Under the pieces are notes generated by a model, which worked only from the letters and a program-made list of their open reading frames with translations, ran no database searches and was not told where the DNA came from. From the NCBI GenBank assembly GCA_964555245.1, contig CAZKRI010000032.1, positions 93,239 through 157,238 of the forward strand: 64,000 bases of DNA. The letters run 5' to 3'. A program made the position numbers and the translations under genes. Source of the stretch: an uncultured Myxococcales bacterium. Lineage in GTDB: Bacteria; Desulfobacterota; Binatia; UBA1149; SPBQ01. Below are positions 4,351 through 60,776 of this stretch, in pieces (positions within the stretch are counted from its first letter, which is position 1; each line of letters opens with the position of its first letter).

Positions 4351-4741
4351 GGATCGTCCTGGCTGTTGGTCTATGCCGAGTGCACAGGCATGGCGATGCA
4401 CAGCACCCACGGTCGGAGAAAGCCGATCTCAGCGTAAACACCATCGGCTCTGACTTGGGATACTGTTGCGCGCCAGCCCGCGATCGGCGGCGCGAAGGCT
4501 GGCCGTCAGCGCGAGCGCGGCCTCTCACCGGCGCTCGCCGACGACAGAAAAAACTCCTTGAATCACGCGGGTTTTGCGCGGACGCGTCGGTCGATGCGTC
4601 CGCAACATTGCGGGGAATCGCCCGCGCCCGGCCCGAATCGACACATAACGCGGGCTCGTCTCCACTGGCCGCCCCGAACGGGGGTGCGGCTAGCCGGAGC
4701 CGCGGTGGCCGCGTCGGACCGTGCTCGAAAGGTGGCCTGCC

Positions 4742-5092: not shown

Positions 5093-5338
5093 AACCTGCC
5101 TCCCAGCGCGGATGCGTACCGCGTGTCTGCCAAGGAGCAATCGTCGTGCCTACGGCGATTGCTCCGCCTGACTCCGAAGATACGCACCTTGGTCGGCAAC
5201 TCCGCATGGCGGACCGCAGGTCAATCCTCAATCTGCTGTGTCGATTTTGTGACGGTCGAGACTTCGACCGTTCCCGCTCTGGGAGTCCTTTCTGCTAGAG
5301 TGAGCCGGCCCAGGCCAACAACGGGGAGAACGCTAGAG

Positions 5339-14377: not shown

Positions 14378-16768
14378 TCAGCCGCGCAAGACCACGGCGG
14401 TCCACGCGTCGCCGCCCTGCTCGGAGTCCGCCGGACCGAACGCCGCTACGTAGGGCGAGCCATCGAGCGCCGCGCGCACCGCGCGCTTGAGCGCGTCGGT
14501 ACCGTGGCCGTGCAGCACGAAGACGCCGTCGTGACCGGCGAGCATCGCCTCGTCGAGAAAGCGCTCCAGGCGTACCAGCGCCTCCTCCACCCGGGTTCCG
14601 CGCAGATCCAGCGTGTTGGCTGCATGGCGCACGATTCGGTTGATGGCGGTCGATCGCGCCGGCTGCGATGAGGATCGGCTCGGCGGCCTCGCGAGTCTGT
14701 CCGGAGCATCCGGCTCGAGTTTGCGCAGTTGGTTCGGCGCGACCCGCACGCTGAGCGCCGCCGCACGCACCTCGACCTCGCGACCACGGACCGCGACCAC
14801 CTCGCCGGTCAAGTTCAAATGCTCGATGCGCACGCGATCGCCCGGTTGCGGGCTGGGCGCTGCGCGGTCCTCGCTCTCCGTCGGCCCGACCATCACCGAA
14901 TCGCGCGTGTGCCGAACGGCCGACCGCGCGGCGGCGGCGGCGGCCGCCGAGGGGGCGCGCTGCAGGTCGGCGACGATGGCGCCGATCTCGCGCTCTGCCT
15001 GGCGCGCCCTTTCCACCAGCGCCGCTGCGGCCTCCTGCTCGAGTTGCCGGGCCCGCCGCCTGATGTGAGCCTCGCGCTCGGCCACCGCGGCTTCACGGCC
15101 GGCTACCTCTTCCAGCGCTCGCTCGGCCTGCAACCGGGTCTCCCGCGCGCGGGTGCGTTCCGCTTCGAGGCTCGCGAGCGTCTCCTGCAAGGCACGCTCG
15201 CCCTGATCCATTAGCGCGCGTGCGCGCGTGACGACCGCCGGCTCGATCCCGGCGCGCAAGGCCGCGGCCAGCGCATGACTTTCGCCAGCCAAGCCGGGGA
15301 GGATGCGATACGTGGGACGCTCGTCACGGTACTCCATCGCCGCGACGCTCACCCGGCGGTCAGCGGCGGACATCGCCTTGAGCTGCGCGTAGTGCGTGGT
15401 GACGACTACGCGCGCACCGGCCTCGGCGAATCGTTCGACGAGCGCGCGGGCGAGCGCGCCGCCCTGGGCGGGATCTGTGCCCGCGGCAATCTCGTCGAGC
15501 AGCAGGAGGGCTCCCGGCCGAACCTCAGCGAGCATCCCGTGCAAGTTGGCCAGGTGGCCGGAGAAGCTGGAGAGTCCACCGTAGACGCTCTGGCGATCTC
15601 CGATGTCGGCTAGCACAGGCTCGAACAGGTCGACCCGGGAACCCTCAGCCGCGGGCACGAAGCAACCGGCGCGCACCAGTAGCGCGCAGATTCCGATGGT
15701 CTTCAGGGCGACGGTCTTGCCGCCCGCGTTCGGTCCCGTCAGCACCAGCACCGGCTGCTCGGCCGTCAGGCGCAAGTCGTTCGCCACGACCTCGGCACGC
15801 TCGAGCACCAGGACCGGATGTCGCGCCGCGCGCAGATCGACGATGGCCTGATCGGCCACCTCAGGCCGCGCGGCGTGCATCCGCAGCGCAAGCTCGGCCC
15901 GCGCCACGATCAGATCGATGGCGGCGGCTGCGGCCAGCGCCGCGACGAGCGCCGGCGCGTGCCGGCCGACCAGCGCACTGAGGTCGCGCAGAATCCGTAG
16001 CTCCTCCGCACGCAGCTCGGCCTCGGCGACGCGGCGCTGATTGTTGAGCGGCACGACGGCATGGGGCTCCAAGAAGATCGTCTGCCCCGAGCGCGAGGCG
16101 TCGTGCACGATGCCGAGGTCGAGTCCCTTGGCGTGCGCCTTGATCGGCACGACGAAGCGTTCTGCGCGGATCGTCACGTAGCGATCCTGAAGCACCCCAG
16201 CGAACTCCTCGTCCACCAGGAGCGCGTCCATCCGCTCGCGCACCCGTCGGTCCAACGCCTGGATCCGCCGTCGCAGCTCGCCCAAAACAGGATAAGCGCG
16301 CTCGCTCAGCTCGCCCCGCTCGTCGAATGCCGAGGTCAAGGTCGACAGCAGCGCCCGATCGATGTCGATCGCGTCACCCGTGGATGCGAGCGTCGGAGCC
16401 GACTGCCGGCGCACGTCGAGAAAGCCGCGCAACCCGACGAGCGCCGCAACCGTGCTGGCCACGGGGCGTAGCTCACCTGCCTCTAGCAGTTCTCCTCGCT
16501 CGCTGCGCGCGACCAGGCCGGCGATATCCTCGACTCCACCCGTCGGCGGAAACGCCCCCTCCGATGTGAGCAGGCCGAGCGCCTCGCCGACCGCATCGAG
16601 CGTCCGGTGAATCGCCGCCAATTCATCGAAAAGGTCGAGTTCCAATGCCGCCCGCCGCCCCGCCGCGGTGCGCGCGTGCGAGGCAAGCGCACCAAGCACG
16701 TACGGCCAGTCCAGTGCCTCGAGGGTCCGTTGGGACAGGTCCATCGAGGCCACCGCTAAGCCGGCCAC
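14378..16768 (-). CDS. mutS2: Endonuclease MutS2 (MutS ATPase core plus C-terminal Smr domain). Start uncertain: GTG 16768 or ATG 16744.
   Basis: Walker A LTGPNAGGKTVALKTIG. C-terminal Smr region LDLRGTRVEEALVRLERFLDEA…VLHGHGT. Confidence 0.85.
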   Translation of the reverse strand: MAGLAVASMDLSQRTLEALDWPYVLGALASHARTAAGRRAALELDLFDELAAIHRTLDAVGEALGLLTSEGAFPPTGGVEDIAGLVARSERGELLEAGELRPVASTVAALVGLRGFLDVRRQSAPTLASTGDAIDIDRALLSTLTSAFDERGELSERAYPVLGELRRRIQALDRRVRERMDALLVDEEFAGVLQDRYVTIRAERFVVPIKAHAKGLDLGIVHDASRSGQTIFLEPHAVVPLNNQRRVAEAELRAEELRILRDLSALVGRHAPALVAALAAAAAIDLIVARAELALRMHAARPEVADQAIVDLRAARHPVLVLERAEVVANDLRLTAEQPVLVLTGPNAGGKTVALKTIGICALLVRAGCFVPAAEGSRVDLFEPVLADIGDRQSVYGGLSSFSGHLANLHGMLAEVRPGALLLLDEIAAGTDPAQGGALARALVERFAEAGARVVVTTHYAQLKAMSAADRRVSVAAMEYRDERPTYRILPGLAGESHALAAALRAGIEPAVVTRARALMDQGERALQETLASLEAERTRARETRLQAERALEEVAGREAAVAEREAHIRRRARQLEQEAAAALVERARQAEREIGAIVADLQRAPSAAAAAAARSAVRHTRDSVMVGPTESEDRAAPSPQPGDRVRIEHLNLTGEVVAVRGREVEVRAAALSVRVAPNQLRKLEPDAPDRLARPPSRSSSQPARSTAINRIVRHAANTLDLRGTRVEEALVRLERFLDEAMLAGHDGVFVLHGHGTDALKRAVRAALDGSPYVAAFGPADSEQGGDAWTAVVLRG

Positions 16769-16788: not shown

Positions 16789-19700
16789 TCAAGCCGGGAC
16801 GGGCGCGCCCATCTCCTCGCAGAGCCTGCGCGCCATCTCGCGCTCGCGCTCCGCGGCGGCATGATTGCCGGCCGCAGCCTCGAGCGCAGCACGCAGGATG
16901 TGAACGCGCGGGGCGAAGCTGCGGGTCCCCATCTCTTCGATGGATGACCGCGCCCGGCTGAGCAGCGAGTCGACGGCGGCGCGGGCCGCACCGCCGTGCA
17001 TTCGAGTCAAGATTTCCGCCTCCGCCAGCAGGGCCGGCGCGATGAACGTCCTCATCCCGGTCGACCGAACCCTCTCGGATGCCTGGCGAACGAGGTCGAG
17101 TGCCGCGTCCATGTCACCGCGCGCAAGTGCAAGCTGTGCGCGTAAGAACGTCAAGGCGAACTGCTGAAACCCGAACGCGACCTGCGCCAGGCGTTGCACC
17201 GTCGCTTCGAGCTCTTCGACCGGCATGCCGAAGCCGGATATGTCCGGTGTGAGAGCCACACACGCGCATGAGACCGCCACCGCCATGCGTACACCCGTCG
17301 CCTCGCCGAGCCGACGCGCCTCGCGGACGCAAGCGAGCGCACGCTGGCGATCCCCCCACAGGGAACAGACGCAGGCCACCAGGCCGAGCGTGATCGCTAG
17401 GTCGATGCGGTCGTCCGTTGCGCGCGAGTGCTCGAGCGCAAGATCTGCCCCGGCCAGCGACTCGGCATACCTACCGGCGTAGGCGGCGCACGTAGCGCTG
17501 AAGCCCCTGCTCCAACCGGCGGTCTGAAATCCCATGTAGTCACTCGCGCCGTCGATGCCGACCTCGCCTATCTGGTCGAGCGTCGCAATCGCCGCCGCCG
17601 GGTCGCGAAACGTCTGCACGACAAGCCAGAAGCTCAGGGCCGCCGAGATCAAATAGTCGTCGCCTGTCTCGCGCGCAGCCATCAGCGCCCGGTCGAGCAG
17701 CGGGAACGCGCCCACCATGTTGCCATCGACGTATGCGACGTTGCCTTCGGCAATGAGGATTCGTATCTCCGCGTGCGGGTCGTCGCAGCCCTCGAGCGCT
17801 CCGCGCGCCTCGGCCAGCAACGCCGGCGCATCGACGCTCGCGCCGGCGCGAAGCCCACGCATCAGCTCCTGGCAACAGGCGCGGATCCGTTGCGACCTCA
17901 CCTCCGGCGTCGGCTCGATGCTCGCCGTCAGGGTCCGTACCTTGCGCCAGTGCTCGTAGCACTCGGCAACGTTGCTCTGCCCGATCCACAGAGCGGCACG
18001 CTCGTACCACCGCGCTGCCGCCAGCAGCTCGCCGGCTTGCTCGTAGTGATGGGCGAGAAGCGCGGCGCGCTCGTCCCGCACCGCATGCGCCTGCGACTCC
18101 AGCGCGCGCCCGAGAGCGGCGTGCAGCGCTCGCCTACGACCGCCGAGCAGAGATTCGTAGGCAACGTCGCGGGTCAGCGCGTGCTTGAACGCGTACTCGG
18201 CGTCGGGATAGAGCGCCGTCGGATAAACGAACTCGTCGTCGACGAGCTTCGACAGGATCGGCGCGAGATCGCTCGGCGCACGCTCGGTCGCGGTCGCCAG
18301 CAGTGCGAGCGGAAAATCTCGGCCGATCGCGGATGCGGCCTGGAGCACCTGCTTGGCCTCGTCGTCGAGTCGGTCGATGCGCGCGGCAAGGACGCCTTGA
18401 ACGCTCCCGGGCACAGGAATCGCATCGATCGGAGTCTCCAAGCGGAAGGCGCCGCGCGCGCCGACGATGTGCCCTTGTTCGGCAAGCTCGCGCGTTATCT
18501 CCTCGATGAAGAACGGGTTCCCGCCGGTGCGCTCGCGCACGCGGGTGCGCAGCTCGGCGAGAGTCGGGTGGCGACCGAGCAGGAAGTCCATCAACTCGTC
18601 GATCTCGCCCGCGCCGAGCGGCGCGAGCGGTACCTGCTGGTAGTACGACTTCTGGATCCATCTTCCGGAGAACTCGGGCCGGAAGTTCAGCAGCAGAAGC
18701 AATTTTCCGCTCGGCACACTGTCGATCAGGGCGTTGAAAAAGACCGTGCTGCCGGGATCCATCCAGTGGAGGTCTTCGACGAGCACCACGACCGCGTCAC
18801 GCTCGCCGCGTGCCGCGGTGAAGCGCCGCAGGACGTCGAGGATCCGGCGAGTCCGTAGCTCCGGGTCGGTCACCGGGATCGGTCGCTTTGGATCGGGAAC
18901 ACCGAGGAAGTCGAACAGCAACGGCAGCGTGTCGATCAGCTTCTCGTCGATCAGCACCACGCGGCCGGCGATCTTGTCGCGGGCGCGTTCGGGCGAATCG
19001 TCGTCCTTGATGCCGAAGACGTTGCGGTACAGCTCGAGCACCGGGAACAGCGGCAGCGTCCGACCGTGGGGCAGGCAGTAGGTCTCGTAGACCGTCACGC
19101 CCCGCTCGCGGCAGCGCTCGAGAAACTCGAAGCAGAGGCGGCTCTTACCGGTGCCCGCCTCGGCGACCACGCCTACGATGCGACCTTGACCGCCCCTGAC
19201 CTCCTCGAAGGCTTCTTCGAGCGACTCGACCTCCCGCGAGCGGCCGACGAAGCGCGAGAAGCCGCGGCTTCGTGAGACGTCCAAACGCGTGCGCAGCTCC
19301 CCGAGGCCGGTCAGTGCGAACACCTCGACCGGCTCGCGCACGCCCTTGATCGTCGAGCGACCCAGACCCTCGAGCGCGAAGTAGCCGCGCACGAGATCGG
19401 CGGTCGCTCCTGTCAGGTAGGCCTTGCCGGGCTCGGCGATCTGCTGCATGCGCGCGGCCAGCCCCACGCTGTGCCCTTGCGCCGTGTAGTCCATGCGCAA
19501 GTCGTCGCCGATGCGTCCGACGACCACGTCTCCGGAGTTGAGCCCGATGCGTGCGGCGACCGGCAGCCCGCGCTCGATCCGCAGTTCGTTGGCGTACTTG
19601 CGCAGCTCGCTCTGGAGATGGAGCGCGGCGAAGCAGGCGCGCTGCGCGTGGTCTTCGTGCGCGATCGGCGCACCGAACAGCGCCATGACACCGTCACCGG

Positions 19701-20094
19701 TGTACTGGTTGATCGTGCCTTCGAAGCGATGGATGCCCTCGGTCATGATCGCGAAGAAGCGATCCATGACGAGGTGCCACTCCTCGGGGTCGAGCTGCTC
19801 GGACATCGCCATGGACCCTTGAATATCGCTGAACAGAACGGTGACGCGCTTGCGCTCCCCCTCGAGCGCACTGCGCGAGGAGAGAATCTTGTCGGCGAGG
19901 TGCTTGGGCGTGTACGCGCCCGGTGAGCGTTCGACAGGCTTCTCGATCGCCGCCTGTCCGCAGGCGGGGCAGAACTTTGCAGACGCTTTCAGCGAGGCGC
20001 CGCAGGTCGCACAGGCACGGGCGAGCTTTGCCCCGCACTCCTCGCAGAACTTGGCCGCGGCCTCGTTCGGGTGCTTACAGACGGCACATTCCAT
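16789..20094 (-). CDS. Multidomain signalling protein: double zinc-ribbon, class III adenylyl/guanylyl cyclase domain, AAA ATPase, and TPR/regulatory C-terminal region.
   Basis: CAVCKHPNEAAAKFCEECG…CATCG…CPACG. Cyclase region RVTVLFSDIQGS…YTGDGVMALFGAP. P-loop GVVAEAGTGKSRL. Confidence 0.8.
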   Translation of the reverse strand: MECAVCKHPNEAAAKFCEECGAKLARACATCGASLKASAKFCPACGQAAIEKPVERSPGAYTPKHLADKILSSRSALEGERKRVTVLFSDIQGSMAMSEQLDPEEWHLVMDRFFAIMTEGIHRFEGTINQYTGDGVMALFGAPIAHEDHAQRACFAALHLQSELRKYANELRIERGLPVAARIGLNSGDVVVGRIGDDLRMDYTAQGHSVGLAARMQQIAEPGKAYLTGATADLVRGYFALEGLGRSTIKGVREPVEVFALTGLGELRTRLDVSRSRGFSRFVGRSREVESLEEAFEEVRGGQGRIVGVVAEAGTGKSRLCFEFLERCRERGVTVYETYCLPHGRTLPLFPVLELYRNVFGIKDDDSPERARDKIAGRVVLIDEKLIDTLPLLFDFLGVPDPKRPIPVTDPELRTRRILDVLRRFTAARGERDAVVVLVEDLHWMDPGSTVFFNALIDSVPSGKLLLLLNFRPEFSGRWIQKSYYQQVPLAPLGAGEIDELMDFLLGRHPTLAELRTRVRERTGGNPFFIEEITRELAEQGHIVGARGAFRLETPIDAIPVPGSVQGVLAARIDRLDDEAKQVLQAASAIGRDFPLALLATATERAPSDLAPILSKLVDDEFVYPTALYPDAEYAFKHALTRDVAYESLLGGRRRALHAALGRALESQAHAVRDERAALLAHHYEQAGELLAAARWYERAALWIGQSNVAECYEHWRKVRTLTASIEPTPEVRSQRIRACCQELMRGLRAGASVDAPALLAEARGALEGCDDPHAEIRILIAEGNVAYVDGNMVGAFPLLDRALMAARETGDDYLISAALSFWLVVQTFRDPAAAIATLDQIGEVGIDGASDYMGFQTAGWSRGFSATCAAYAGRYAESLAGADLALEHSRATDDRIDLAITLGLVACVCSLWGDRQRALACVREARRLGEATGVRMAVAVSCACVALTPDISGFGMPVEELEATVQRLAQVAFGFQQFALTFLRAQLALARGDMDAALDLVRQASERVRSTGMRTFIAPALLAEAEILTRMHGGAARAAVDSLLSRARSSIEEMGTRSFAPRVHILRAALEAAAGNHAAAEREREMARRLCEEMGAPVPA

Positions 20095-32458: not shown

Positions 32459-35400
32459 ATGCCGACAGTCACCAGTCGTTTTGCACGCGCGGTGGCCACG
32501 GTCGCCTGCGCATTGTTGCTATCCGCCGCCAGGGCACTGGCCGGCGGCGCGGTGATGGTCGTCGGCCACGATGCTGACGATCACGGCTTCGAAGCCACGT
32601 ACGCCGATCTCTACGACCTGCTGCTCGCCAGCACCACCAACGGCAGCAGCGGCATTCTCGCCATCGGCGCCGACGCCGGCTCGGCCGCCGGCAACTGGAT
32701 CACCACCGTTGCCGGCCTCATGAACACACCGCAGACGGTCACCTTCGTCAACGACGCCGCAATCTCGACGGCCTCGTTCTCCGGCTTCGCCATCATCCAC
32801 GTGCCGAGCACGAACATCGATACCCCCGGCGGCATCAATTCGACCACCGAGCAGCCGCTGCTGGTCGCCCGCGCCGTCGACATCGCCGGCTTCATCAATG
32901 GGGGCGGCTCCCTCTTCGGACTTACTCAGGACAGCGTCACGGACGCCTACGGGTATCTGGGGTTGTTCGCGGAGATCACCTCCGTCGGAGTTCCGGCGAG
33001 CGGGGACTGTGGCGGCGGTCAACAGTTCGACAACATCACGTCCACTCCAGCGGGGCAGGCTCTCGGCATCACCGACACGAACGTGGATGGGTGCTGCTGG
33101 CACAATTCGTTCACGAGCTACCCGGCCTTCTTGCAACCGCTCGCGACGGTGGACGAGCCCGGGTGCACCAGCCCGGTCATCGACGGCCATGCAGCGATGC
33201 TCGGCTGTCTGAACTGCACCTTGCCCGGCCAGATGAGCCTGGCGCCGGCGGTTGATCTCAACCCGCCCGGGACCAGCCACACCGTAACCTCGACGTTCCT
33301 CGAAGGCCTCGCGCCGAACGACCCCATCGTGGGCGTGCTCACCGATTATGACGTCATTTCGGGTCCCAACGCCGGGGCGAACGGTACGGACACCACCAAC
33401 GTCAACGGCCAGGCTTCGTTCACCTACACCAGCAATGGAAGCATCGGAGTGGACCGGATTCAGGCTGCCGCCCAGGATCCGAGCACGCTCGACATCGTGA
33501 CCTCCAACACGGCGATCAAGTTCTGGGACGAAGACTGCAACAGCAACTCGATCCCGGACACCTGCGATCTGGACTGCAACGGATTCGCCGACGACTGCCT
33601 GCTCTTCGCTGGCTGCGGCACGAGCGCCGATGCGAACGGCAACAGTGTGCCCGATGACTGCGATGAGTGCTTGACGGACGCCGACTGCGACGACGGCAAC
33701 GTCTGCACGGACGACGATTGCGTGTTGCCTGCCGCGCAGTGCACGAACATCCCGAATACCGCGCCCTGCGACGACGGCTTGTTCTGCACCGCAACCGACG
33801 TGTGTGCCGGCGGCGTCTGCACGGGCTCCGGTGATCCCTGCCCCGGCCAATTCTGCGACGAAGCGAACGATCAGTGCGCGGACTGTACGGCGAACGCTCA
33901 GTGCGACGACGGCATCGCGTGCACCGTCGACACCTGTACGCCGGGCGGCACATGCGCGAGCGCGCCCGACGACAGCTTGTGTCCGGATACGACGTGCACG
34001 AACGGTGTCTGCAACGCGATCAGCGGCTGCGGGAGCACGCCCACCAACGAAGGCGGGCCCTGCGACGACGGGAACTCCTGCACGACCAACGACGTCTGCA
34101 TCGCGGGAGTCTGCACCGGCACGAGCGACACCTGCGGCAACGGCACCGTGGAACCCGCGTGCGGTGAGACCTGCGAGCCACCGGGCACGCTCACCTGCGC
34201 CAGCGACTGCACCGACGCGGAGTTCTGTCGCGGGCCCATCCCGCCCCCGGGCGTCGACTGCAACGATCCCCTCACTCCGCCCGAGCTGTGCGACCCCTGC
34301 GATCTGATCTGCTTCCCGGGGGAGCAGCCGACCGTGCGGCGCGCCGCCGGTCGCATCGGGTTCGTCTCGGACGAGAACTACACCGGCACCAATATCGACG
34401 GGAACGACGAGATCCACATCTTCGATCTCAAGCACTTCTTGCGACGCAAGAAGAAAGGCGCCGCCCAGCCTGTTGCGCTGATCGATTCGGTGGTGCAGAT
34501 CACCGACACGACGGTCAACGGTGTCAGCGCCATCGCCGTCAACGAAGCACCGAGCTTCAATGCAAGTGGACGCTATCTGGCGTTCGCATCCAACGCGGAC
34601 GTGTTCGGCGATGGCTTGAGCGATGACGGCAACAACGAGATCTTCCACCACAAGCTCACCGTCAAGAAGAGCAAGATCATCAAGACCAAGATCACGGTCG
34701 ACCTCCAGGAGAGCAACCGCATCACGGCCACCGCCGGCGTCGACAACCGCAACCCGAACCTGCGCGCCTTCCGCGGCAACCTCCTCATCTTCGACTCGCC
34801 CGGGGATCTGGTCCCCGACCGCTGCTCGGGCGGCGACCTCGATCTCGAGCTTTGCACCACCAACGCCGACTGTGCCGGCGCCGTCTGCGGCAACCCCGAG
34901 GGCAACCGCGAGGTTTTCGAGTGGGTCCGTAGCGAAAGCTCGGGCGACACGCCGTTGCGGCAGCTAACGGCTTCACCCAGCGGCACGAGTACCGTGGGCC
35001 AGGCCGGCAACTTCAACACCAAGGCTACCGTCTTCTCGAGCGACGCCGACCTGATCGGTCAGAATCCGGACGGAATCGGCCAGATCTATCGAATCATCAA
35101 GAAACCCGAGAACCTGGTGCAGATCAGTCAGCTCACCGACGCGACCACCCCCGGGGCCACCGCCAGCGACCCGGTGCAGTCACGCAAGCCGCTCGCCACG
35201 TTCATTTCGGATGCCGACCTGACCGGAGCCAACCCGCTGACGCTCGATCAGGTCTTCCTGTGGCGCGAGAGCGGCGCACCGGCGTTCACGCAGATAACCG
35301 ACACTCCGAGCGGGCTCTGCGAGTACGACGCGCCGGCGATCGACGGCGGCGGGCGGTACATCGCGCTCGCCACCAACTGCGATCTCTTGGACAGCACCGT

Positions 35401-35620
35401 CGGTATCACCCCGACCCTATTCTTCTTCGACGTCGTTCGCGGCGGGTACGTCGGTTTCTCGGTCGCGTCGCCTGGCGGCGAGCCGGTCGCCAATCCGATC
35501 GTGACGCAACGGGCCAAGCGGGCCGTGTTCGAGCTTCTCGACCAGAATGACGATCCGGACGCGGTCTGTATTTTCCGGATCCGCAAGGAGCACTTCGAAG
35601 GCCCGCTCACACCGCCGTAA
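32459..35620 (+). CDS. Giant secreted multidomain protein: signal peptide, N-terminal domain, Cys-rich CxDGxxCTxDxC (CTDC-like) repeats, a myxo-type CGNG…GE.CE repeat, and a C-terminal TolB-like (PD40/WD40-like) beta-propeller region.
   Basis: GGGAGG RBS. Signal MPTVTSRFARAVATVACALLLSAARALA. CDDGNVCTDDDC, CDDGLFCTATDVC, CDDGNSCTTNDVC. CGNGTVEPACGETCEPPG. PD40-like GRYLAFASNADVF…GNNEIF, GRYIALATNCDLLD. Confidence 0.75.
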   Translation: MPTVTSRFARAVATVACALLLSAARALAGGAVMVVGHDADDHGFEATYADLYDLLLASTTNGSSGILAIGADAGSAAGNWITTVAGLMNTPQTVTFVNDAAISTASFSGFAIIHVPSTNIDTPGGINSTTEQPLLVARAVDIAGFINGGGSLFGLTQDSVTDAYGYLGLFAEITSVGVPASGDCGGGQQFDNITSTPAGQALGITDTNVDGCCWHNSFTSYPAFLQPLATVDEPGCTSPVIDGHAAMLGCLNCTLPGQMSLAPAVDLNPPGTSHTVTSTFLEGLAPNDPIVGVLTDYDVISGPNAGANGTDTTNVNGQASFTYTSNGSIGVDRIQAAAQDPSTLDIVTSNTAIKFWDEDCNSNSIPDTCDLDCNGFADDCLLFAGCGTSADANGNSVPDDCDECLTDADCDDGNVCTDDDCVLPAAQCTNIPNTAPCDDGLFCTATDVCAGGVCTGSGDPCPGQFCDEANDQCADCTANAQCDDGIACTVDTCTPGGTCASAPDDSLCPDTTCTNGVCNAISGCGSTPTNEGGPCDDGNSCTTNDVCIAGVCTGTSDTCGNGTVEPACGETCEPPGTLTCASDCTDAEFCRGPIPPPGVDCNDPLTPPELCDPCDLICFPGEQPTVRRAAGRIGFVSDENYTGTNIDGNDEIHIFDLKHFLRRKKKGAAQPVALIDSVVQITDTTVNGVSAIAVNEAPSFNASGRYLAFASNADVFGDGLSDDGNNEIFHHKLTVKKSKIIKTKITVDLQESNRITATAGVDNRNPNLRAFRGNLLIFDSPGDLVPDRCSGGDLDLELCTTNADCAGAVCGNPEGNREVFEWVRSESSGDTPLRQLTASPSGTSTVGQAGNFNTKATVFSSDADLIGQNPDGIGQIYRIIKKPENLVQISQLTDATTPGATASDPVQSRKPLATFISDADLTGANPLTLDQVFLWRESGAPAFTQITDTPSGLCEYDAPAIDGGGRYIALATNCDLLDSTVGITPTLFFFDVVRGGYVGFSVASPGGEPVANPIVTQRAKRAVFELLDQNDDPDAVCIFRIRKEHFEGPLTPP

Positions 35621-36174: not shown

Positions 36175-37371
36175 TCAGAACACATCCATCGTGGGGAACG
36201 CGTCCGTAGCCCGGATGCAACTCCACAGGTAGATCGCCAGGCCGAGATCTCCCGTCCACAGCGAGTATCGATAGCGGCCGTACTCCTCGTGGTGCCGTTC
36301 GCACTGCGCGATCCCGTGCATCGCGAACGCTCGCGCCCGATCCAGCCAGAGCTGGTTCCGAGTCCGGCGAAAGAGCTTGAGGAAGGCGTAGCCGTTGCCC
36401 GCCGTTCCGTGACAGAGATTGGCGCCCTTTTGCAGGGGACCAGCGGTCCAGATCAGCTCTCCTGCTTCGCTCAGCAGCTCATCGAGGGCGGAATCAGGAA
36501 GCTCGGCAAGGCAAGTCACCACGCCCGGGGCGCCGTGACAGTGTTGGACCAGCAGCGCGGTGCGGCCGGGCCGCGGGGTGCCCACGCTCTGAGGCCAGTT
36601 TACCCGGCCCTCTGCGCGCAGTGCCGTCGCGGTGATGGTCTCCACGATGCGACGTTGCCACTGGCGCCAATCGGCCGGCGGCAGCACTCGGCGACCGCGA
36701 ATGAGGGCGAACGCGTTGCCCGCGAAGCCATGGACGGCGCCCAACAGCTTGGAACGGGCGCCGAGAAAATCTTGCGTCCAGAGATAGCAGCCGTGCTCGG
36801 AGTCTTGCTCGAGTGCGCGGCCGAGCGCGCTGGCGCTACGGCGAAACAGTTCGGCCCAGGACTCATCCCCGGTCCACTCATGCATCGCGAGCGCCGCCAG
36901 CATGGTTCCGGGCGAGCCCAACATGAGCTCGAGGGCTGGGTGCTCCTCGTTCCCCGAGATCGCCTTGGCAAGCTCCGTCGCAACTTCCGGCGAGCGGCTC
37001 CGCTTCCAGGAGAGCAGAAGAATGCCGGCATCTCCCACGAGCAGGGAACCGGTGTCCGGCGTGAAGAGCCGGACGGTGGCGCGATTCGGCTCGAGCAGTC
37101 CGGCCAGCGCCTCCGCGAAATCCGCGGGCGGTCCTGCCGCGCCAACCTCGTGGAGATAGTCGAGGCCCCACATGACGCCGGCCGCGCCGAAGTAGAGCAT
37201 CCGCAGCGGTTCGGTCGCAGCCGGGGAGTCGAGAGCATGGGCCGGCCACAGGCCGTTCGTCGTAAAGTCCCGTTGCGTCGCGGCCGCGATCCGCTCGATG
37301 GCGTCCCGAGCCGCGGCCACGTCCCACGGCGTGCCGATGAGTGGCTCGTGTCTCTCGGTCTCGAACAACAT
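36175..37371 (-). CDS. LanC-like protein (lanthionine synthetase C-like fold), stand-alone.
   Basis: Conserved LanC motifs: …AHG-like, VQHCHGAPGVV (WCxG/CHG) and LCHGTAGNGYAF. Size about 400 aa. Confidence 0.7.
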   Translation of the reverse strand: MLFETERHEPLIGTPWDVAAARDAIERIAAATQRDFTTNGLWPAHALDSPAATEPLRMLYFGAAGVMWGLDYLHEVGAAGPPADFAEALAGLLEPNRATVRLFTPDTGSLLVGDAGILLLSWKRSRSPEVATELAKAISGNEEHPALELMLGSPGTMLAALAMHEWTGDESWAELFRRSASALGRALEQDSEHGCYLWTQDFLGARSKLLGAVHGFAGNAFALIRGRRVLPPADWRQWQRRIVETITATALRAEGRVNWPQSVGTPRPGRTALLVQHCHGAPGVVTCLAELPDSALDELLSEAGELIWTAGPLQKGANLCHGTAGNGYAFLKLFRRTRNQLWLDRARAFAMHGIAQCERHHEEYGRYRYSLWTGDLGLAIYLWSCIRATDAFPTMDVF

Positions 37372-43031: not shown

Positions 43032-43104
<73 letters not shown>

Positions 43105-43155: not shown

Positions 43156-43232
43156 TGGGGTGAGCGACGGGATTCGAACCCGCGACAACCGGGACCACAA
43201 CCCGGGGCTCTACCGCCTGAGCTACGCCCACC
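43156..43232 (-). tRNA. tRNA-His (anticodon GTG) with extra 5' G(-1) and encoded 3' CCA.
   Basis: Reverse complement GGTGGGCGTAGCTCAGGCGGTAGAGCCCCGGGTTGTGGTCCCGGTTGTCGCGGGTTCGAATCCCGTCGCTCACCCCA. Anticodon loop uuGUGgu. 8-bp acceptor stem typical of tRNA-His. Confidence 0.85.
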
Positions 43233-51164: not shown

Positions 51165-52973
51165 CTACGGAGTCACGCTCCAGACCGGCCCGAGCCCGCT
51201 GTCGAACTGGGCGCCGCTGAACAGCAGATGGGCGCCGGGCAAGAAGTCCGCCCCCAGCATGAACGCATCCAACTGGTAGAGCGTGCCGGACATCGAACCG
51301 GCCCCGATCAACCCGGCCATTCCAAGCTCGGTGACGTCAGTAACGGCCGTTCCCCCCGGCAGCTCGACGGTGGTGCGGCTGAAGCCACCGCTCTTGTTTC
51401 GTGAGAGCGCACCGCCCCCGCTCGGCGTGAAGTGATCGGAGCGGTAGGTCGTGCCTCCCACCACGGCGTACGCGTAGAGAACGTCGCCGGGAACATCGAC
51501 ATCCAGCTCGTACTCGACGAACAGATAGTCACGCGGATCGCCGAGCGCCAGGGTATTGGTACGTGTCGGCACCTCGATCTTGGTCTCGCGGATCATCTCC
51601 TTCGCCATCGCGACGTAGGAAACCGGATCCAGGTCCATGCCCCGCTCGCGCGGCAGACCGCTGTCGTCGAATTCGAACGGCGCCAGGGCGAAGCGCAGTC
51701 GCGAGTCGCCGTCGTCTTCGACCAGGCCGTTGGCCGTGCTCGTGCGGACGATGGGATGCGTGCCCAGGAAGCCTCCGGCGAACACCGGCAAGATCCCGCT
51801 CTCGTCGGGCCGGAATCGTACCTCCTCGAGCACCCCGAGGTCGCTCACGTCGACCTCGACGTAGCCTTCGATGTCGGTGGTCCGCCCGTACTGGGCCATG
51901 AGCACGTTCGGGAACAGCCCGGTTCCGCCGTCCTCATTGCTCCAGATCATCACGTAGCGGTACGTGGTCATGCCGCTTTGCGGGATCGCGCGAACGTAGG
52001 TCACCACGGGCACATCGCTGACCGCATTGCCGGGATGGGAACTGAAGACGTTGAGATCATCGTCCAACCCCAGCAGCACCGGTGCGAAGCGGAGCGCGTC
52101 GTAGCCGGGGTCGCTCGGCGCAAGCACGGAGGCCTGAGCCGATGCATGGATCACACCGGCGGAGGTCGAGGCGGGGCTCAGGGTTTTGCTGTGACGCAGC
52201 CCGATCGTGTGATCGCCTGCGCTGAGATCGCCCAGGAGAATGCGGTAGTCGGTTGCGGCCTCACCGTTGTGGACGACGATCGTGCCGAGGGCCTGGCCAT
52301 CGACGTCATACTCCAAGACGATCGATTCGGCTCCGTACAGACCCCAGTCGGACGCTTCCGACGACAACGTCAACGTGGCGGCGCCTTCGCCAGCAACTGC
52401 CGCCGTGAACTCCAACGTCTGAATGCGGCCCGGACGCACCGCGGTCGGCATGATTCCTTCGACCCAGTCGGAGACCTGCGCGCACAGCGTCGCGCCATCG
52501 CAGGCGCCCGGCTTGTCGGCCGAGGTCGCGCAGGACTGCGCGTCGTTAGCGAGCTTGTCCATGGTTCCGGTGCGCCGGCGTTTGAGGCGTTTTGCGGCGA
52601 GCTTGCCTGCCGCCTTCGCACGCGCGAGCTGACAGTCATCCGCCGCCGACATCGCGCAGGAGCCGGCGTCATCCCACGCGGCAGCCAGTGCGGTCTCCGC
52701 CATCGCTCGGATCTGGCAAGCGAGCAGATCCCCGCAGGCCGGTGATAGCCCCGACTCGGCCGGGTCGGGCAGCGGACAAGCTGTGGGACAGCCGGGATCC
52801 CCGTCCTTCGCGCAATCGAGCACCGCTTTCGATGCTCTCTTCGCGTAGACCTCTAGCGTCTTGGGATCGGTCGAATCCTCGACCGAGCAGTCGCCGGCGC
52901 ACTGGGCTGTCGCGCGTACAGGGATTGCAAGAAAGGAACCGATGAGGAGGCACATCAACGCGAAGCGAAGCAT
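51165..52973 (-). CDS. Large secreted hypothetical protein (about 600 aa). N-terminal Cys-containing helical region, then a beta-rich region. No recognisable family.
   Basis: Start at MLRFALMCLLIGSFLAIPVRATAQ (signal peptide). Coherent long frame. Confidence 0.5.
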   Translation of the reverse strand: MLRFALMCLLIGSFLAIPVRATAQCAGDCSVEDSTDPKTLEVYAKRASKAVLDCAKDGDPGCPTACPLPDPAESGLSPACGDLLACQIRAMAETALAAAWDDAGSCAMSAADDCQLARAKAAGKLAAKRLKRRRTGTMDKLANDAQSCATSADKPGACDGATLCAQVSDWVEGIMPTAVRPGRIQTLEFTAAVAGEGAATLTLSSEASDWGLYGAESIVLEYDVDGQALGTIVVHNGEAATDYRILLGDLSAGDHTIGLRHSKTLSPASTSAGVIHASAQASVLAPSDPGYDALRFAPVLLGLDDDLNVFSSHPGNAVSDVPVVTYVRAIPQSGMTTYRYVMIWSNEDGGTGLFPNVLMAQYGRTTDIEGYVEVDVSDLGVLEEVRFRPDESGILPVFAGGFLGTHPIVRTSTANGLVEDDGDSRLRFALAPFEFDDSGLPRERGMDLDPVSYVAMAKEMIRETKIEVPTRTNTLALGDPRDYLFVEYELDVDVPGDVLYAYAVVGGTTYRSDHFTPSGGGALSRNKSGGFSRTTVELPGGTAVTDVTELGMAGLIGAGSMSGTLYQLDAFMLGADFLPGAHLLFSGAQFDSGLGPVWSVTP

Positions 52974-53074
52974 GGCGGGACTATACACGCCGGGCGACGC
53001 TCCTGTCCACGCGGGATTGCCCCGTTTGCGCCCAGACCGCTCTCGCGTTTTAAGACCGGAGGCCACGAACGAAT

Positions 53075-53587
53075 ATGGCAACGCTCACCCACATCTTGGG
53101 GCTCGTTATTCTGATCGCTGTGGCGCTCCTCGCCCTGGCCTGCCTCGTCATCGGTTTGCCCGGCACGTTCTTCCTGTTCGGCATCGCACTGGCCTACGGA
53201 TGGATCACCGGTTTCGAGATGGTCACCTGGGTAAAGCTGGCCTGGCTGCTCGCTCTGGCTGTGGTCGCCGAGATCCTCGAGCTCGCCTCGGCCGCGGTAG
53301 CGACCGGCACCGAGCGCCCCACCCGGCGGGTGACAGTCGCCGCCTTGAGCGGCGGTTTCGTCGGTGGCCTGGTGGGGACGCCGTTTCTGCTGGGCGTGGG
53401 TTCGTTGCTCGGCGCACTGACGGGTGCGTTCGCCGGTGCGACACTGGCGGCAAGCAGTGAAGGCAAGCAGACGCAGTCGGCGCTGCGCGCGGGACTGGCC
53501 GCGATGCGCGGCCGCCTGCTCGGCTTCGTCGTCAAGGCGTCGATCGGCGTGGTGATGCTGATCGTTCTGATCGCCGCGGCGCTGTAG
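53075..53587 (+). CDS. DUF456-like small integral membrane protein.
   Basis: GGAGG RBS. Four hydrophobic helices. Gly-rich GGFVGGLVG…LGALTGAFAG segments typical of DUF456. Confidence 0.6.
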   Translation: MATLTHILGLVILIAVALLALACLVIGLPGTFFLFGIALAYGWITGFEMVTWVKLAWLLALAVVAEILELASAAVATGTERPTRRVTVAALSGGFVGGLVGTPFLLGVGSLLGALTGAFAGATLAASSEGKQTQSALRAGLAAMRGRLLGFVVKASIGVVMLIVLIAAAL

Positions 53588-53681: not shown

Positions 53682-53927
53682 ATGCGAAGCGTGAGACTCG
53701 ACGAATCGCTCGAATCTCGCCTGGAGGAGGCGGCCCACCTCAGCGGCGAGCCCGTCTCCAACATCATCCGGCAGGCGATTGAGGAGCGTTGCGCCGCCAT
53801 GCTGGGACAACGGCTTGCGCACCGCCTGCGGGACGTCGCAGGAATCGTCCGCAGTAAGGGCGGACGCGCGCGACGCACGGGCAAGAAGTTCTCGGCCCAG
53901 CTAAAGAAGAAACAGGGTCGCCGTTGA
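53682..53927 (+). CDS. vapB: Ribbon-helix-helix (CopG/VapB-like) antitoxin.
   Basis: MRSVRLDESLESRLEEAAHLSGEPVSNIIRQAIEE RHH pattern. Overlaps the downstream PIN gene. Confidence 0.6.
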   Translation: MRSVRLDESLESRLEEAAHLSGEPVSNIIRQAIEERCAAMLGQRLAHRLRDVAGIVRSKGGRARRTGKKFSAQLKKKQGRR

Positions 53928-54331
53928 TTTTGGTGGACGCGGGTCCTCTCGTCGCGGTCATCGACCGCGGAGAGGCCGATCACGAACGGTGTCTCATGGC
54001 TCTCTCGAGCCTTTCCGCGCCCATGATCACGACCTGGCCCGCGTTCACCGAAGCGATGTACCTGCTCGGAAGCGCGGGGGGATGGAAGGCTCAGGACGGG
54101 CTCTGGAAGCTGCTGGAACGCGGAGACCTGCAGCTCGTCCCGCTCGACGACCCACTGCAGAGTCGAATCCGCGTCCTGATGGCCAAGTACAAGGATCTTC
54201 CTATGGATCTGGCCGATGCGTCTCTGGTTGCTGCCGCCGAAGCGCTCGGGATCACACGGGTGTTCACCCTGGATCGCGATTTCCGGGTCTATCGCTGGAA
54301 AGGTAAGCGCAGGTTCGAGATCGTCCCCTGA
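53924..54331 (+). CDS. vapC: PIN-domain toxin (VapC-like). TTG start at 53924 or GTG at 53933.
   Basis: Acidic PIN residues (ILVDAGPLVAVID…DLADASLVAAAE…TLDRDF). Confidence 0.7.
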   Translation: MILVDAGPLVAVIDRGEADHERCLMALSSLSAPMITTWPAFTEAMYLLGSAGGWKAQDGLWKLLERGDLQLVPLDDPLQSRIRVLMAKYKDLPMDLADASLVAAAEALGITRVFTLDRDFRVYRWKGKRRFEIVP

Positions 54332-56682: not shown

Positions 56683-58097
<1,415 letters not shown>

Positions 58098-58104
<7 letters not shown>

Positions 58105-58442
58105 GGCGGTTGCTTGCCCAGGGAGAGCGAGCCGTCGCAGATCGCGACCGCCTCGCGCAAGCGCAGCGCGAACGCCCGCACGTCGGTCTCGGACGCGCCG
58201 GCATCGAGGGCGTTGTCCAAGCACGCTGCCGTGTCGCTGATCTGGGCGTAGCCGTAGGAGGCTCCCGTGCCGCGCAGGTTGTGGGCGATCACACGACAAC
58301 ACCGGCGTGCATCGGTTCCCGTCGACTGACCATTCAAGAGCGAGAGCAGCTCCGCGACATCGGCGGCCGCCTCATCGAGGAAGGCACGCTGCAGCTTGAG
58401 GAATCTCTGTTTGCGATCCGCTTCGAGCACCGCACACCTCAT
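58098..58442 (-). CDS. Hpt (histidine phosphotransfer) domain protein.
   Basis: HNLRGTGASYGYAQI matches the Hpt HxxKG phospho-His helix. 114 aa. Overlaps the NtrC-like start. Confidence 0.6.
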
Positions 58443-58570
58443 TCCAGCCTACCATCTGGTTCGGCCGCGGCTCGGCATAAAATGACGCGGGACCCGCCGG
58501 TCAGCCCACCGACGAGTCCCGCGTTTGCTGCAGAGAGAGAGGAGGAATCACACCGTGGCCTGCCGGAGGG

Positions 58571-58597
58571 CTCGCACCGTGGGGGGTTCGGTGCGAG
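58571..58597 (-). terminator. Perfect 9-bp stem / 9-nt loop hairpin (CTCGCACCG…CGGTGCGAG) 27 nt downstream of the flp stop codon. Candidate terminator or attenuator; no U-tract.
   Basis: Read directly from sequence. Confidence 0.3.
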
Positions 58598-58623
58598 CCT
58601 ACCGGCCTGCCGTTCGGCCTGGA

Positions 58624-58794
58624 CTACTTCGCGTTGCCGAGAGTCGAGGCCGAGGCGTTGAACACAGCAACGATCTGGTCGCGCAGCGCGGTCACCGCAC
58701 CGATCGTCGCCACCGCGATCAAAGCCAACAGCATGGCGTACTCCGCCATCGACGCGCCCTGCTCATCCTTCACGAAAGTCTCGAAAAGCTTCAT
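58624..58794 (-). CDS. flp: Flp-family type IVb prepilin (Flp/Fap pilin). Start at MKLFETF (ATG 58794).
   Basis: MKLFETFVKDEQGASMAEYAMLLALIAVATIGAV has the characteristic Flp G/xxxxEY processing motif and a hydrophobic stretch. AAAGGAGAA RBS. Confidence 0.7.
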   Translation of the reverse strand: MKLFETFVKDEQGASMAEYAMLLALIAVATIGAVTALRDQIVAVFNASASTLGNAK

Positions 58795-58862
58795 TTGGTT
58801 CCGTTCTCCTTTGGTTATCGATCCCCGCGACCTGATCGCGTTCGTCGTAGTGCTCGGACATC

Positions 58863-58878
58863 TGCAAGCGAGATGCCA
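58863..58878 (-). promoter_or_regulatory. Sigma54 (-24/-12) promoter match TGGCAT-N5-TTGCA, about 57 nt upstream of the flp start codon.
   Basis: Minus-strand reading TGGCATctcgcTTGCA. GG and GC spacing identical to the TGGCACG-N4-TTGCW consensus. Confidence 0.4.
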
Positions 58879-59225
58879 TCGCGGCGCAACTCGCGCTGCA
58901 GAGCGAGTTTGGCGTCTTGGCCACCGCCGCCCTGGCCTCGAACCCAGCATCCGCAACGTTCAGACGTTCAATCTTGAGTCAGCCGTCTCATCTCGTCTCG
59001 ATCTGATGCGGGCCTGCTGCGGCAGACCGGCGCCGGCTCCATGGCATCCGCTGGGCCGGCCGCCCACGCACGTCGCATGCGCCGGACGCCACCGTAGTGG
59101 CACCATGACCCACTTGCACCAACTCGAAGCATCGACTCGAACCGGTGGATTGGACGCGGACGATCCACTAGCCTTGCCCACCCCTGGCCGGCCGGCTCGC
59201 CCGGCCGGCGGCCACGAGGAGACCT

Positions 59226-60776
59226 ATGGCGGAGTACGGATTCTGGAATCTGGCGCGCGCCAACCCGGACAGGCTCGCGCTGGTGACCCCGCGGGAGCGG
59301 CGGATCAGTCGCGGCGAGTTGGCGGCAGCCTCCAACCGCCTGGCGCGGGCGCTACGCGCCCTCGGTGTAAGCAAGGGCGACGCAGTGGCGACGCTGCTGC
59401 CGAACGAAGCCGAGATGATCGAAGCGTACCTGGCCGCATTTCAAATCGGTTGCTACCTGGTTCCCATCAACCATCACCTGGTCGGCCCTGAGATCGCCTA
59501 CATCGTCGACAACTCCGACTCGAAGGCGTTCATCGGCCACGAGAGCTTCGCCGAGGTCTGCCAGGCGGCGGCCGGGGAGTTCTCCGTACCCAATGCGGCC
59601 CGGCTCGCGGTCGGCTCGATACCTGGGTTTCGGACCTACGCGGACGTCGTGGGCGAGCAGCCCGACGGCCCACCAGAGGCGCGAACCGCGGGCGCCGTCA
59701 TGAACTACACGTCGGGCACGACCGGAAAACCCAAAGGCGTACGCCGGCGGCTTCCGGATACGGACCCGGACACGATGGGAGCGCTCTATGCGCTGTTCCT
59801 GTCCATGTTCGGAATCCAGCCCGAAGACGGCAACGTTCACCTGTGCGGCTCGCCGCTCTACCACACCGCCGTGCTGTTGTTCGCGTCATCCTCTCTGCAC
59901 TTCGGCCACGCCGTGGTGCTCATGGACCGGTGGACCCCCCAAAGCTGCCTCGAGCTCATCGAACGATACCGGGTAACGACCAGTCACATGGTTCCCACCC
60001 AGTTCCACCGGCTGCTCGGTCTGCCCGAAGCCGCGCGCAAGAGGTACGACCTCGCTTCGCTCCGCTGCATGATCCACGCGGCCGCGCCCTGCCCCACCGA
60101 AACGAAACGAAAGATGCTCGAGTGGTGGGGTCCCGTGGTCTACGAATACTACGCCGCAAGCGAAGGCGGCGGCACGCTCGTAACGCCGCAGGAGTGGCTC
60201 GAGTATCCGGGAACCGTGGGAAGGCCCTGGCCCAGCTCCGACATCAAGATCTTTGACGACCAGGGAAACCCCTGCCCCGTCAACACTCCCGGAACCGTCT
60301 ACATGGCGCTCGGCACCAACGAGTTCCGCTACCACAAGGACGAGGCCAAAACCGAGGACAACCGGCGCGCCGGTTACTTCACGGTCGGCGACATCGGCTA
60401 CCTCAACGAGCAAGGGTATCTGTTCCTCTGCGACCGCAAGGTCGACATGATCATCTCGGGCGGCGTCAACATCTATCCGGCCGAGATTGAGGCGGTGCTG
60501 CTCACGCATCCCCATGTTGCGGATGCCGCGGTGTTCGGGATTCCCAACGAGGACTGGGGCGAAGAGGTCAAGGCCACGGTTCAGCTCATCGACGGCATCT
60601 CACCCGATGATGGCACGAGCCAGGACGTTCTCGCGTTCTGCGACGACAAGCTTGCCAAGTACAAGCGGCCCAAGTCGATCGACTTCGTCGTCGAGATGCC
60701 GCGCGATCCCAACGGGAAGCTCTACAAGAGGAAGCTTCGCGACCCGTACTGGGCCGGCCGTTCACGGGCGATCTGA
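59226..60776 (+). CDS. Acyl-CoA synthetase / AMP-dependent ligase.
   Basis: AMP-binding motif YTSGTTGKPKGV, plus …GYLNEQGYLFLCDRKVDMIISGGVNIYPAEIE… and C-terminal PRDPNGKLYKRKL. Confidence 0.85.
   Translation: MAEYGFWNLARANPDRLALVTPRERRISRGELAAASNRLARALRALGVSKGDAVATLLPNEAEMIEAYLAAFQIGCYLVPINHHLVGPEIAYIVDNSDSKAFIGHESFAEVCQAAAGEFSVPNAARLAVGSIPGFRTYADVVGEQPDGPPEARTAGAVMNYTSGTTGKPKGVRRRLPDTDPDTMGALYALFLSMFGIQPEDGNVHLCGSPLYHTAVLLFASSSLHFGHAVVLMDRWTPQSCLELIERYRVTTSHMVPTQFHRLLGLPEAARKRYDLASLRCMIHAAAPCPTETKRKMLEWWGPVVYEYYAASEGGGTLVTPQEWLEYPGTVGRPWPSSDIKIFDDQGNPCPVNTPGTVYMALGTNEFRYHKDEAKTEDNRRAGYFTVGDIGYLNEQGYLFLCDRKVDMIISGGVNIYPAEIEAVLLTHPHVADAAVFGIPNEDWGEEVKATVQLIDGISPDDGTSQDVLAFCDDKLAKYKRPKSIDFVVEMPRDPNGKLYKRKLRDPYWAGRSRAI

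Follow-up and report, generated by a model that had tools for sequence, protein, structure and literature searches.

What turns on a pilin gene that stands apart from the genes for its pilus machinery? The question is raised by a stretch of 64,000 nucleotides (nt) of contig CAZKRI010000032.1 from an uncultured Myxococcales bacterium (hereafter the window), in which flp, a gene for a 56-amino-acid (aa) Flp/Tad prepilin, is followed on the same strand by genes for a stand-alone histidine phosphotransfer (Hpt) protein, an NtrC-family sigma-54 activator, a histidine kinase with three PAS domains and a single-domain CheY-like receiver. A preliminary description of this DNA had proposed that the activator drives flp from a sigma-54 promoter, in the manner of PilS/PilR. 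The explanation that we favour, and consider reasonably probable, is that the activator drives sigma-54-dependent transcription of flp at the end of a split phosphorelay.

The pilin gene and its promoter match both proved real. The open reading frame (ORF) translates as MKLFETFVKDEQG/ASMAEYAMLLALIAVATIGAVTALRDQIVAVFNASASTLGNAK and matches Pfam PF04964 (Flp_Fap) at 42.3 bits (cut-off 32.2; E = 6.5e-11); its length lies inside the 50-80 aa norm, the sequence ...DEQG/ASMAEYAMLLALIAVATIGAV... fits the G/XXXXEY processing motif, and hydropathy peaks at 2.22 over residues 19-37, the hydrophobic helix that follows this motif. The gene is preceded by an AAGGAG ribosome-binding site, and an NCBIfam search gave no equivalog for Flp. 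Upstream lies TGGCATCTCGCTTGCA, the sole match to TGGCAY-N5-TTGCW on either strand of the window, with its GG and GC dinucleotides exactly 10 nt apart. Only 0.04 strict boxes were expected from dinucleotide shuffles (any match in 4 of 100 shuffles), and no other intergenic site in the window scored 10/11 or better against the consensus. The distance of 57 nt first given between motif and ATG was in error: the box occupies the positions 69-84 nt before the flp ATG, and 57 nt fits instead the transcription start predicted near 58852. No sigma-70 consensus was found by a promoter scan of 58050..59300. In the alignment with the related locus L003 the box is kept as TGGCAC-CGTGC-TTGCA(GA) while the surrounding upstream DNA has largely diverged, and the presence of a GAFTGA-bearing activator in the window implies that the host probably possesses sigma-54.

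All four regulatory proteins named in the preliminary description were confirmed by Pfam domains and motifs, and promoter, pilin, Hpt, activator, kinase and receiver all fall within 4.6 kb, with 520 nt between flp and the activator gene. All 10 homologues compared share His54 of the Hpt protein, in the motif AHNLRGTGxxYG; were the GTG at 58430 used as the start instead, the product would have 110 aa, the length seen in relatives, and NCBIfam holds no equivalog for it. A conserved ATGGTAGSCTGGA before the Hpt gene lacks the spacing of a sigma-54 site; it is probably a ribosome-binding region. The activator carries GAFTGA at residue 219, the Walker A motif GESGTGKE at residue 172 and a receiver aspartate in DLMLP, and the gene call of L001 agrees with its gene bounds. 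It fell below the cut-off of every NCBIfam equivalog for a named regulator, among them NtrC (426 bits against 559), LuxO (387 against 800), AtoC, PrsR and ZraR. The kinase has no receiver domain of its own and no membrane segment (mean hydropathy over any 19 residues is at most 1.34). The Hpt and activator genes overlap by 7 nt, activator and kinase are separated by 13 nt, and kinase and receiver overlap by 4 nt (ATGA), the start of the receiver gene over the stop of the kinase gene; the genes are translationally coupled.

The same arrangement recurs in related DNA. When metagenomes were scanned with an alignment built from these Flp proteins, 67 loci were returned, and sigma-54 boxes were counted over 518 kb of non-redundant related loci. 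This census gave 45 strict boxes, 41 of which precede flp or cpaA: 38 stand before flp (36 of them 30-130 nt from its start), 3 before cpaA and 4 elsewhere; L084 has a further box before cpaA, beyond these 45. In related loci the boxes lie 57-92 nt upstream of flp. All seven flp genes examined in L003, L008, L010, L012 and L014 have TGGCA[CT]-N5-TTGCA 57-88 nt before the ATG, the box in L077/L079 is 60 nt upstream, and L086 has a weaker one (TGGCGT-N5-TTGCT) 140 nt upstream; the contig of L076 starts too near flp to judge. The box is not general to Flp genes, since those of a distant 'LLLGLITV' subgroup have no sigma-54 box upstream. Two strict boxes, at L072:4250 (plus strand) and L072:15194 (minus strand), precede small ORFs with N-termini resembling an XRE-type helix-turn-helix; these ORFs may be further members of the same regulon.

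The unit of promoter, flp, Hpt and activator genes was found at least seven times (L003, L008/L020, L010, L012, L014, L076/L079 and L086), with activator identities of 55-76%. L003 (76% identical) has the gene order of the window, and L008/L020 (68%) has the same five genes beside other upstream neighbours. The order is flp-Hpt-activator in L014 and in L076/L079 (55-56%); L010 (65%) has three flp genes followed by Hpt and activator genes, L012 (65%) has Hpt-activator-kinase-receiver and then flp-Hpt-activator, and in L086 (63%) one inserted gene separates flp from the Hpt-activator pair. Thus the unit persists despite changed neighbours, one to three flp copies, and the presence or absence of kinase and receiver. 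Within L010 (4690..7430) the three flp genes, each with a sigma-54 box, are interrupted by a wax-ester synthase/diacylglycerol acyltransferase (WS_DGAT) gene, and a WS_DGAT gene is also found near the flp of L086. The only named relative with the module is L014, from a metagenome-assembled genome (MAG) labelled 'uncultured Myxococcales bacterium'; it was also the one locus returned by a genome scan with an Hpt alignment, for which the search pattern was too strict. The host is an uncultured high-GC bacterium whose nearest labelled relative is this 'Myxococcales' MAG, and its taxonomic placement depends on that one label. The window itself belongs to a MAG, and short contigs identical to stretches of it are present in Logan assemblies SRR9952630 and SRR9952632. 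It is from such adjacency and conservation that we infer the link between activator and flp proposed earlier: the box is kept while its flanks diverge, and the flp-Hpt-activator order survives rearrangement.

The DNA upstream of the promoter was compared for sites at which the activator could bind. The candidate region in the window consists of three adjoining YGAGA pentamers (Table 1), and CAGATYGAGAC is common to the window (-122 relative to the box), L003 (-122) and L008 (-187). The half-site CGAGA occurs 27 times against 13.5 expected in promoters of the regulator-linked type, with no enrichment in other promoters. TCTCG-N3-CGAGA dyads are present in L010b and in L049a/b, a promoter pair on one contig, and a k-mer test on 34 non-redundant promoters found GAGWCTC in 8 sequences against 0.8 expected, together with enriched A-tracts. 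We regard all three enrichments as exploratory, because the CGAGA motif and the promoter grouping were picked after the data had been inspected and the motif is missing from several tad-linked and orphan promoters. A search for inverted repeats upstream of flp did find a palindrome with 11-nt arms, at a distance of 10 nt from the -24 box on its upstream side; L003 does not share it, so that its significance is doubtful and it was rejected as the activator site. CGCA-N7-TGCG, the best result of a search for a dyad shared among nine promoters, was unconvincing (4 of 9 promoters, against a shuffle maximum of 3).

An orphan pilin gene could be a decaying remnant in a bacterium with no pilus, its promoter match being a leftover or a coincidence. 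This would accord with the gene content of the window, where no tad/cpa Pfam domain (Peptidase_A24, RcpC, Secretin, T2SSE, T2SSF or TadE) was found in the roughly 50 ORFs scanned, of 81-1207 aa; these were picked by G+C content at third codon positions, 7 of them (152-1207 aa) had no Pfam match, and a few shorter ones (about 60-180 aa) were left unscanned. The lack of tad/cpa genes reported for the window is borne out to that extent, and on the 168-kb source contig no CpaF homologue was found either; the best CpaF match in NCBI and Logan data, L084, comes from another sample. The search beyond the window did find full tad operons in relatives, behind the related flp genes of L033, L037 and L084. 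In L033 and L034-L038 flp stands directly upstream of a complete tad operon with Peptidase_A24 (CpaA), RcpC (CpaB), secretin (CpaC), CpaE, T2SSE (CpaF) and one or two T2SSF (TadB/C) genes, and the Flp proteins there are 74-77% identical to that of the window. The cpaA gene has its own box, TGGCATG-N4-TTGCA, in L017, L031, L033 and L084. The label 'orphan' therefore holds within the window, whereas among relatives there are tad operons with sigma-54 promoters of their own and a tad-linked flp copy that encodes an identical mature pilin.

That copy bears most directly on decay. Compared with the tad-linked flp of L017, the mature pilin of the window shows no difference in 43 residues despite 21 differences in 129 nt, and its leader differs at 8 of 13 residues; compared with L003, 1 of 43 residues and 13 of 129 nt of the mature part differ. 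A similar pattern was seen in sample Ga0315338, where regulator-linked (L020), orphan (L029) and tad-linked (L033) flp genes encode identical mature pilins behind unlike leaders, with 9-24 nt differences among copies that share a sample and not necessarily a genome. Across the window, L017, L020, L029 and L033, many synonymous differences and clearly distinct leaders accompany identical mature pilins, and the 13-aa leaders group by genomic context, for example MNTVRELCKDEVG and MNIVRELCNDEMG in tad-linked genes. By these comparisons the mature pilin is under strong purifying selection across paralogous contexts. The contrast between 0/43 aa and 21/129 nt argues that flp is not a remnant, as do a promoter, ribosome-binding site, processing motif and terminator that are intact and conserved and the complete tad operons of relatives; a major Tad pilin encoded apart from its machinery is, moreover, already on record in KilP (PMC12075869). 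Decay is therefore hardly credible to us, and we argue that the window flp is probably a selected, functional extra copy of the major Tad-type pilin gene. Since relatives have promoters of this type before other flp copies and before the tad/cpa operon, a single sigma-54 regulon probably comprises the whole Tad pilus, its machinery being encoded elsewhere in the genome.

The transcribed region of flp has conserved features beyond the coding sequence. In the L003 alignment the 3' untranslated region (UTR) is conserved better than the region upstream of the promoter, its fold z-score (58470..58640) is -5.7, and the stem of the intrinsic terminator shows three compensatory base-pair changes between window and L003, read from the alignment. 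With its own sigma-54 promoter and this strong terminator, flp forms what is in essence a separate transcription unit. Between the two hairpins lies the tract TTCCTCCTCTCTCTCT, similar to a Rho-loading site or to an anti-Shine-Dalgarno sequence. Pyrimidine tracts of this kind occur 3' of flp in many related loci, and the 3' UTR could be a Rho-loading site or the source of a 3'-UTR-derived RNA. Within this 3' UTR (58478..58622, minus strand) the long hairpin is flanked by CGGCAGGCC direct repeats.

These features could mean that the main product of the locus is a regulatory RNA, a small RNA processed from the structured 3' UTR of the sigma-54 transcript. The conservation and folding of the 3' UTR and the recurrent pyrimidine tracts fit this alternative, as do strict sigma-54 boxes at L014:5062 and L074:825 with no Flp ORF downstream and a C/U-rich hairpin region in its place; downstream of the L074:825 box come a C/U-rich stretch and a hairpin, and these two sites may be degenerate flp genes or small-RNA genes. 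However, a role as Rho-loading sites accounts just as well for the C-rich, G-poor tracts, and no Rfam family was matched at the flp locus in searches of the whole window and in a sensitive scan of 58400..59250, which yielded only two tRNAs and one sub-threshold chance match. Since the coding sequence is under strong selection, an RNA would be at most an added function, and we consider it quite improbable as the main product.

Several observations weigh against control of flp by the adjacent activator. The strong terminator separates flp from the regulatory genes, and no promoter for the regulator operon was found in the scan of 58050..59300, so that the regulators would need read-through or some other promoter. 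The kinase and receiver are missing from the L010 and L014 loci. All module-bearing loci share a DUF456/suf neighbourhood, so that inherited synteny may account for some of the conservation of the module. No one binding motif was found to be shared by all sigma-54 flp promoters; CGAGA does not occur in those of L033, L029 and L034, and the candidate region of the window is made of direct pentamer repeats, not a dyad. The absence of a CpaF homologue from the source contig belongs here as well.

Some of these points would also suit an alternative in which the sigma-54 promoter is real and is served by an activator encoded elsewhere, for example one dedicated to tad, while the adjacent operon has other targets and adjoins flp by synteny or as a read-through passenger. 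No activator gene lies within 10 kb of the tad-linked and orphan flp promoters of L029, L033 and L034-L038, CGAGA is not enriched at such promoters, and the terminator stands between flp and the regulators. Distant homologues of the activator (61-63% identical, planctomycete-labelled or in other contexts) have an Hpt gene and a receiver or hybrid kinase gene adjoining in L015, L016 and L085, with no flp and no sigma-54 box beside the Hpt-activator pair; this pairing is thus older, its attachment to flp being lineage-specific, and its persistence without flp also speaks for the relay. On the other side, the flp-Hpt-activator order survives changed flanks, flp duplication and loss of kinase and receiver, and the 518 kb of related loci offer almost no other sigma-54 boxes as alternative targets. 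Known pilin genes usually adjoin the gene of their own sigma-54 regulator, as with PilR. The same is true of the targets of DVU2114 (PMC3333781). We judge the alternative unlikely but deserving of weight, and continue to favour the adjacent activator.

On that explanation, the soluble triple-PAS kinase would autophosphorylate and pass phosphate to the lone receiver, from which it would move to His54 of the Hpt protein and on to the receiver domain of the activator. The phosphorylated activator would bind on the upstream side of the promoter, perhaps at the block rich in CGAGA some 120 nt away, and use ATP to open the sigma-54 complex at flp. Read-through of the terminator into the regulatory genes could provide positive feedback, and the same activator would probably also act at other flp copies and at tad operon promoters elsewhere in the genome. 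A bolder version would make the Tad pilus a sigma-54 regulon of two or three flp paralogues, with one mature pilin, different leaders and their own promoters, one of them wired to the four-protein relay, such that read-through feedback sets an all-or-none switch of piliation and the 3' UTR possibly acts as a regulatory RNA; as a whole this is rather unlikely and we offer it as speculation. Coordinates of the features discussed are collected in Table 1.

Table 1. Features of the flp locus and the adjoining regulatory genes (positions in the window).
Feature	Position	Strand	Basis or detail
Candidate activator-binding region TCAGATCGAGACGAGATGAGAC	58985..59006	minus	three adjoining YGAGA pentamers, 122 nt upstream of the -24 box
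Palindrome, 11-nt arms AACTCGCGCTG/CAGAGCGAGTT	58888..58909	unstranded	10 nt upstream of the -24 box
Sigma-54 -24/-12 box TGGCATCTCGCTTGCA (TGGCAT-CTCGC-TTGCA)	58863..58878	minus	strict TGGCAY-N5-TTGCW match
Predicted 5' UTR, conserved blocks CACTACGACGAACG and GCGGGGATCGA	58795..58852	minus	L003 alignment
AAGGAG ribosome-binding site	~58806..58811	minus	within the predicted 5' UTR
flp, 56-aa Flp/Tad prepilin	58624..58794	minus	Pfam PF04964, translation MKLFETFVKDEQG/ASMAEYAMLLALIAVATIGAVTALRDQIVAVFNASASTLGNAK
flp leader MKLFETFVKDEQG	58756..58794	minus	13 residues before the processing site
Mature pilin of flp, 43 aa	58627..58755	minus	G/ASMAEY processing motif, then hydrophobic helix
3' UTR extended hairpin 1	58552..58622	minus	core GGCTCGCACCG...CGGTGCGAGCC at 58569..58599; conserved in L003
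C/U-rich, G-poor tract TTCCTCCTCTCTCTCT	58532..58547	minus	unpaired, between two hairpins
Intrinsic terminator after flp, 17-bp stem and CATTTTAT	58478..58524	minus	three compensatory base-pair changes relative to L003
Stand-alone Hpt protein	58098..58442	minus	Pfam PF01627, 29.7 bits, cut-off 24.6
NtrC-family sigma-54 activator, 473 aa	56683..58104	minus	REC PF00072, AAA+ PF00158 (234 bits), HTH_8 PF02954
Histidine kinase, 647 aa	54726..56669	minus	three PAS, HisKA (H-box HELRTP), HATPase_c
Single-domain CheY-like receiver, 125 aa	54352..54729	minus	Pfam

Other features of the window were recorded in passing. Between the receiver and DUF456 genes lies a toxin-antitoxin pair, VapB-like (ribbon-helix-helix, DUF6290) and VapC (PIN), at 53682..54331 on the plus strand, which looks recently inserted because it is missing from the otherwise syntenic L003. 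A gene for a 638-aa Cys-rich protein (51165..53081, minus strand) has no Pfam or NCBIfam match, and L003 has a 602-aa gene without a Pfam match at the same position. The suf/isc Fe-S cluster genes occupy about 43.7-49.2 kb, with two tRNA genes (43032..43104 and 43159..43231, minus strand) just past their iscU/cysteine-desulfurase end. Positions 16789..20094 (minus strand) encode a 1101-aa protein whose domains are a double zinc ribbon, an adenylate/guanylate cyclase, AAA_16 and TPR, and a MutS2/Smr gene (14378..16768, minus strand) adjoins. Two long ORFs, of 1207 aa (787..4410, minus strand) and 1053 aa (32459..35620, plus strand), matched nothing in Pfam or NCBIfam, and a LanC-like gene (36175..37371, minus strand) comes after the second. 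A weaker intergenic sigma-54-like box, AGGCACGACGATTGCT (5136..5151, minus strand), precedes an ORF whose small product is hydrophobic at its N-terminus.

What is known about the control of Tad/Flp pili comes from just a handful of cultured bacteria. The window locus and some 40 related promoters suggest that sigma-54 control of flp and tad is widespread in an uncultured Myxococcota-like lineage, and the locus offers a compact, testable circuit. It also illustrates that a Flp gene can lie far from tad genes without being a remnant, and that pilin paralogues can share one mature part behind different leaders. None of these findings overturns current understanding, and their place is best seen beside the systems already described.

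The analogy with PilS/PilR drawn in the preliminary description is a loose one. PilS/PilR governs pilA, a type IVa pilin gene, in Pseudomonas, Myxococcus and Geobacter (cited in PMC3333781). What is shared is the arrangement, with the gene of an NtrC-family regulator adjoining a pilin gene under a sigma-54 promoter. PilS spans the membrane several times, whereas the kinase of the window has no membrane segment; the pilin of the window is a 56-aa Flp_Fap protein, not PilA; and the two-step PilS/PilR pathway is extended here by an Hpt protein and a separate receiver, so that the analogy fails for the kinase, the target and a relay that appears to have four steps.

Since the Hpt protein and one receiver each stand alone, which indicates a four-step relay, the architecture is closer to that of LuxU-LuxO. 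In Vibrio, hybrid kinases signal through LuxU, an Hpt protein, to LuxO, a sigma-54 activator whose targets are the qrr small-RNA genes. Both systems have a stand-alone Hpt gene adjoining, and co-transcribed with, that of an NtrC-family activator, and in both a multi-step relay would end at a sigma-54 promoter. They differ in the target, which is qrr and not a pilin gene in Vibrio, and in the kinase and receiver, which are fused there and split in the window; nor does the window activator qualify as a LuxO equivalog, with 387 bits where 800 are required.

Phosphorelays and two-component systems are known to control Flp pilins elsewhere. In Caulobacter the CckA-ChpT-CtrA relay controls pilA. PprAB regulates flp/tad in Pseudomonas aeruginosa (Bernard et al. 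2009, as cited in PMC3333781), and in Pectobacterium an adjacent two-component system positively regulates the flp/tad genes, whose expression was left unchanged by deletion of the sigma-54 activator VasH (PMC3767616). These systems resemble the window in that the regulatory genes often lie beside the flp/tad cluster. To our knowledge, none of the three has a sigma-54 activator as its output. For the separation of pilin and machinery, the closest likeness in a related bacterial group is the Tad-like Kil pilus of Myxococcus xanthus, whose major Flp-type pilin KilP (mxan_5121) is encoded away from the kil clusters; KilP is longer, at 97 aa, with no reported Hpt-activator module next to it (PMC12075869).

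A closer precedent than PilS/PilR, by analogy of layout, is DVU2114 of Desulfovibrio vulgaris, a sigma-54 response regulator that DNA-affinity-purified-chip (DAP-chip) analysis showed to target the Flp-type pilin genes DORF39640-DVU2116, with binding upstream of them (Rajeev et al. 2011, PMC3333781). These pilin genes adjoin cpa/tad genes, with conservation in a few further sulfate reducers (PMC3333781), and D. alaskensis G20 has the same layout, with regulator Dde_2355 next to flp gene Dde_2357 (PMC12363597). DVU2114 is the sole sigma-54 case that we found in the literature, and it rests on that single DAP-chip study. In both settings the gene of an NtrC-type sigma-54 regulator adjoins Flp-family pilin genes, the machinery is of the Cpa/Tad type, and regulation would run through sigma-54; the comparison is one of layout and not of orthology, between binding detected by DAP-chip there and a locus known from its sequence here. 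The Desulfovibrio pilin genes directly adjoin cpaA-F/tad, whereas the window flp lies apart from any tad operon and is joined to a stand-alone Hpt protein, a PAS kinase and a lone receiver. Sigma-54 control of Flp in the window thus extends a scheme already shown in Desulfovibrio and is not a new kind of system; what is new is its occurrence together with a relay through a stand-alone Hpt protein, a pilin gene set apart from the machinery, and several paralogues for one mature pilin.

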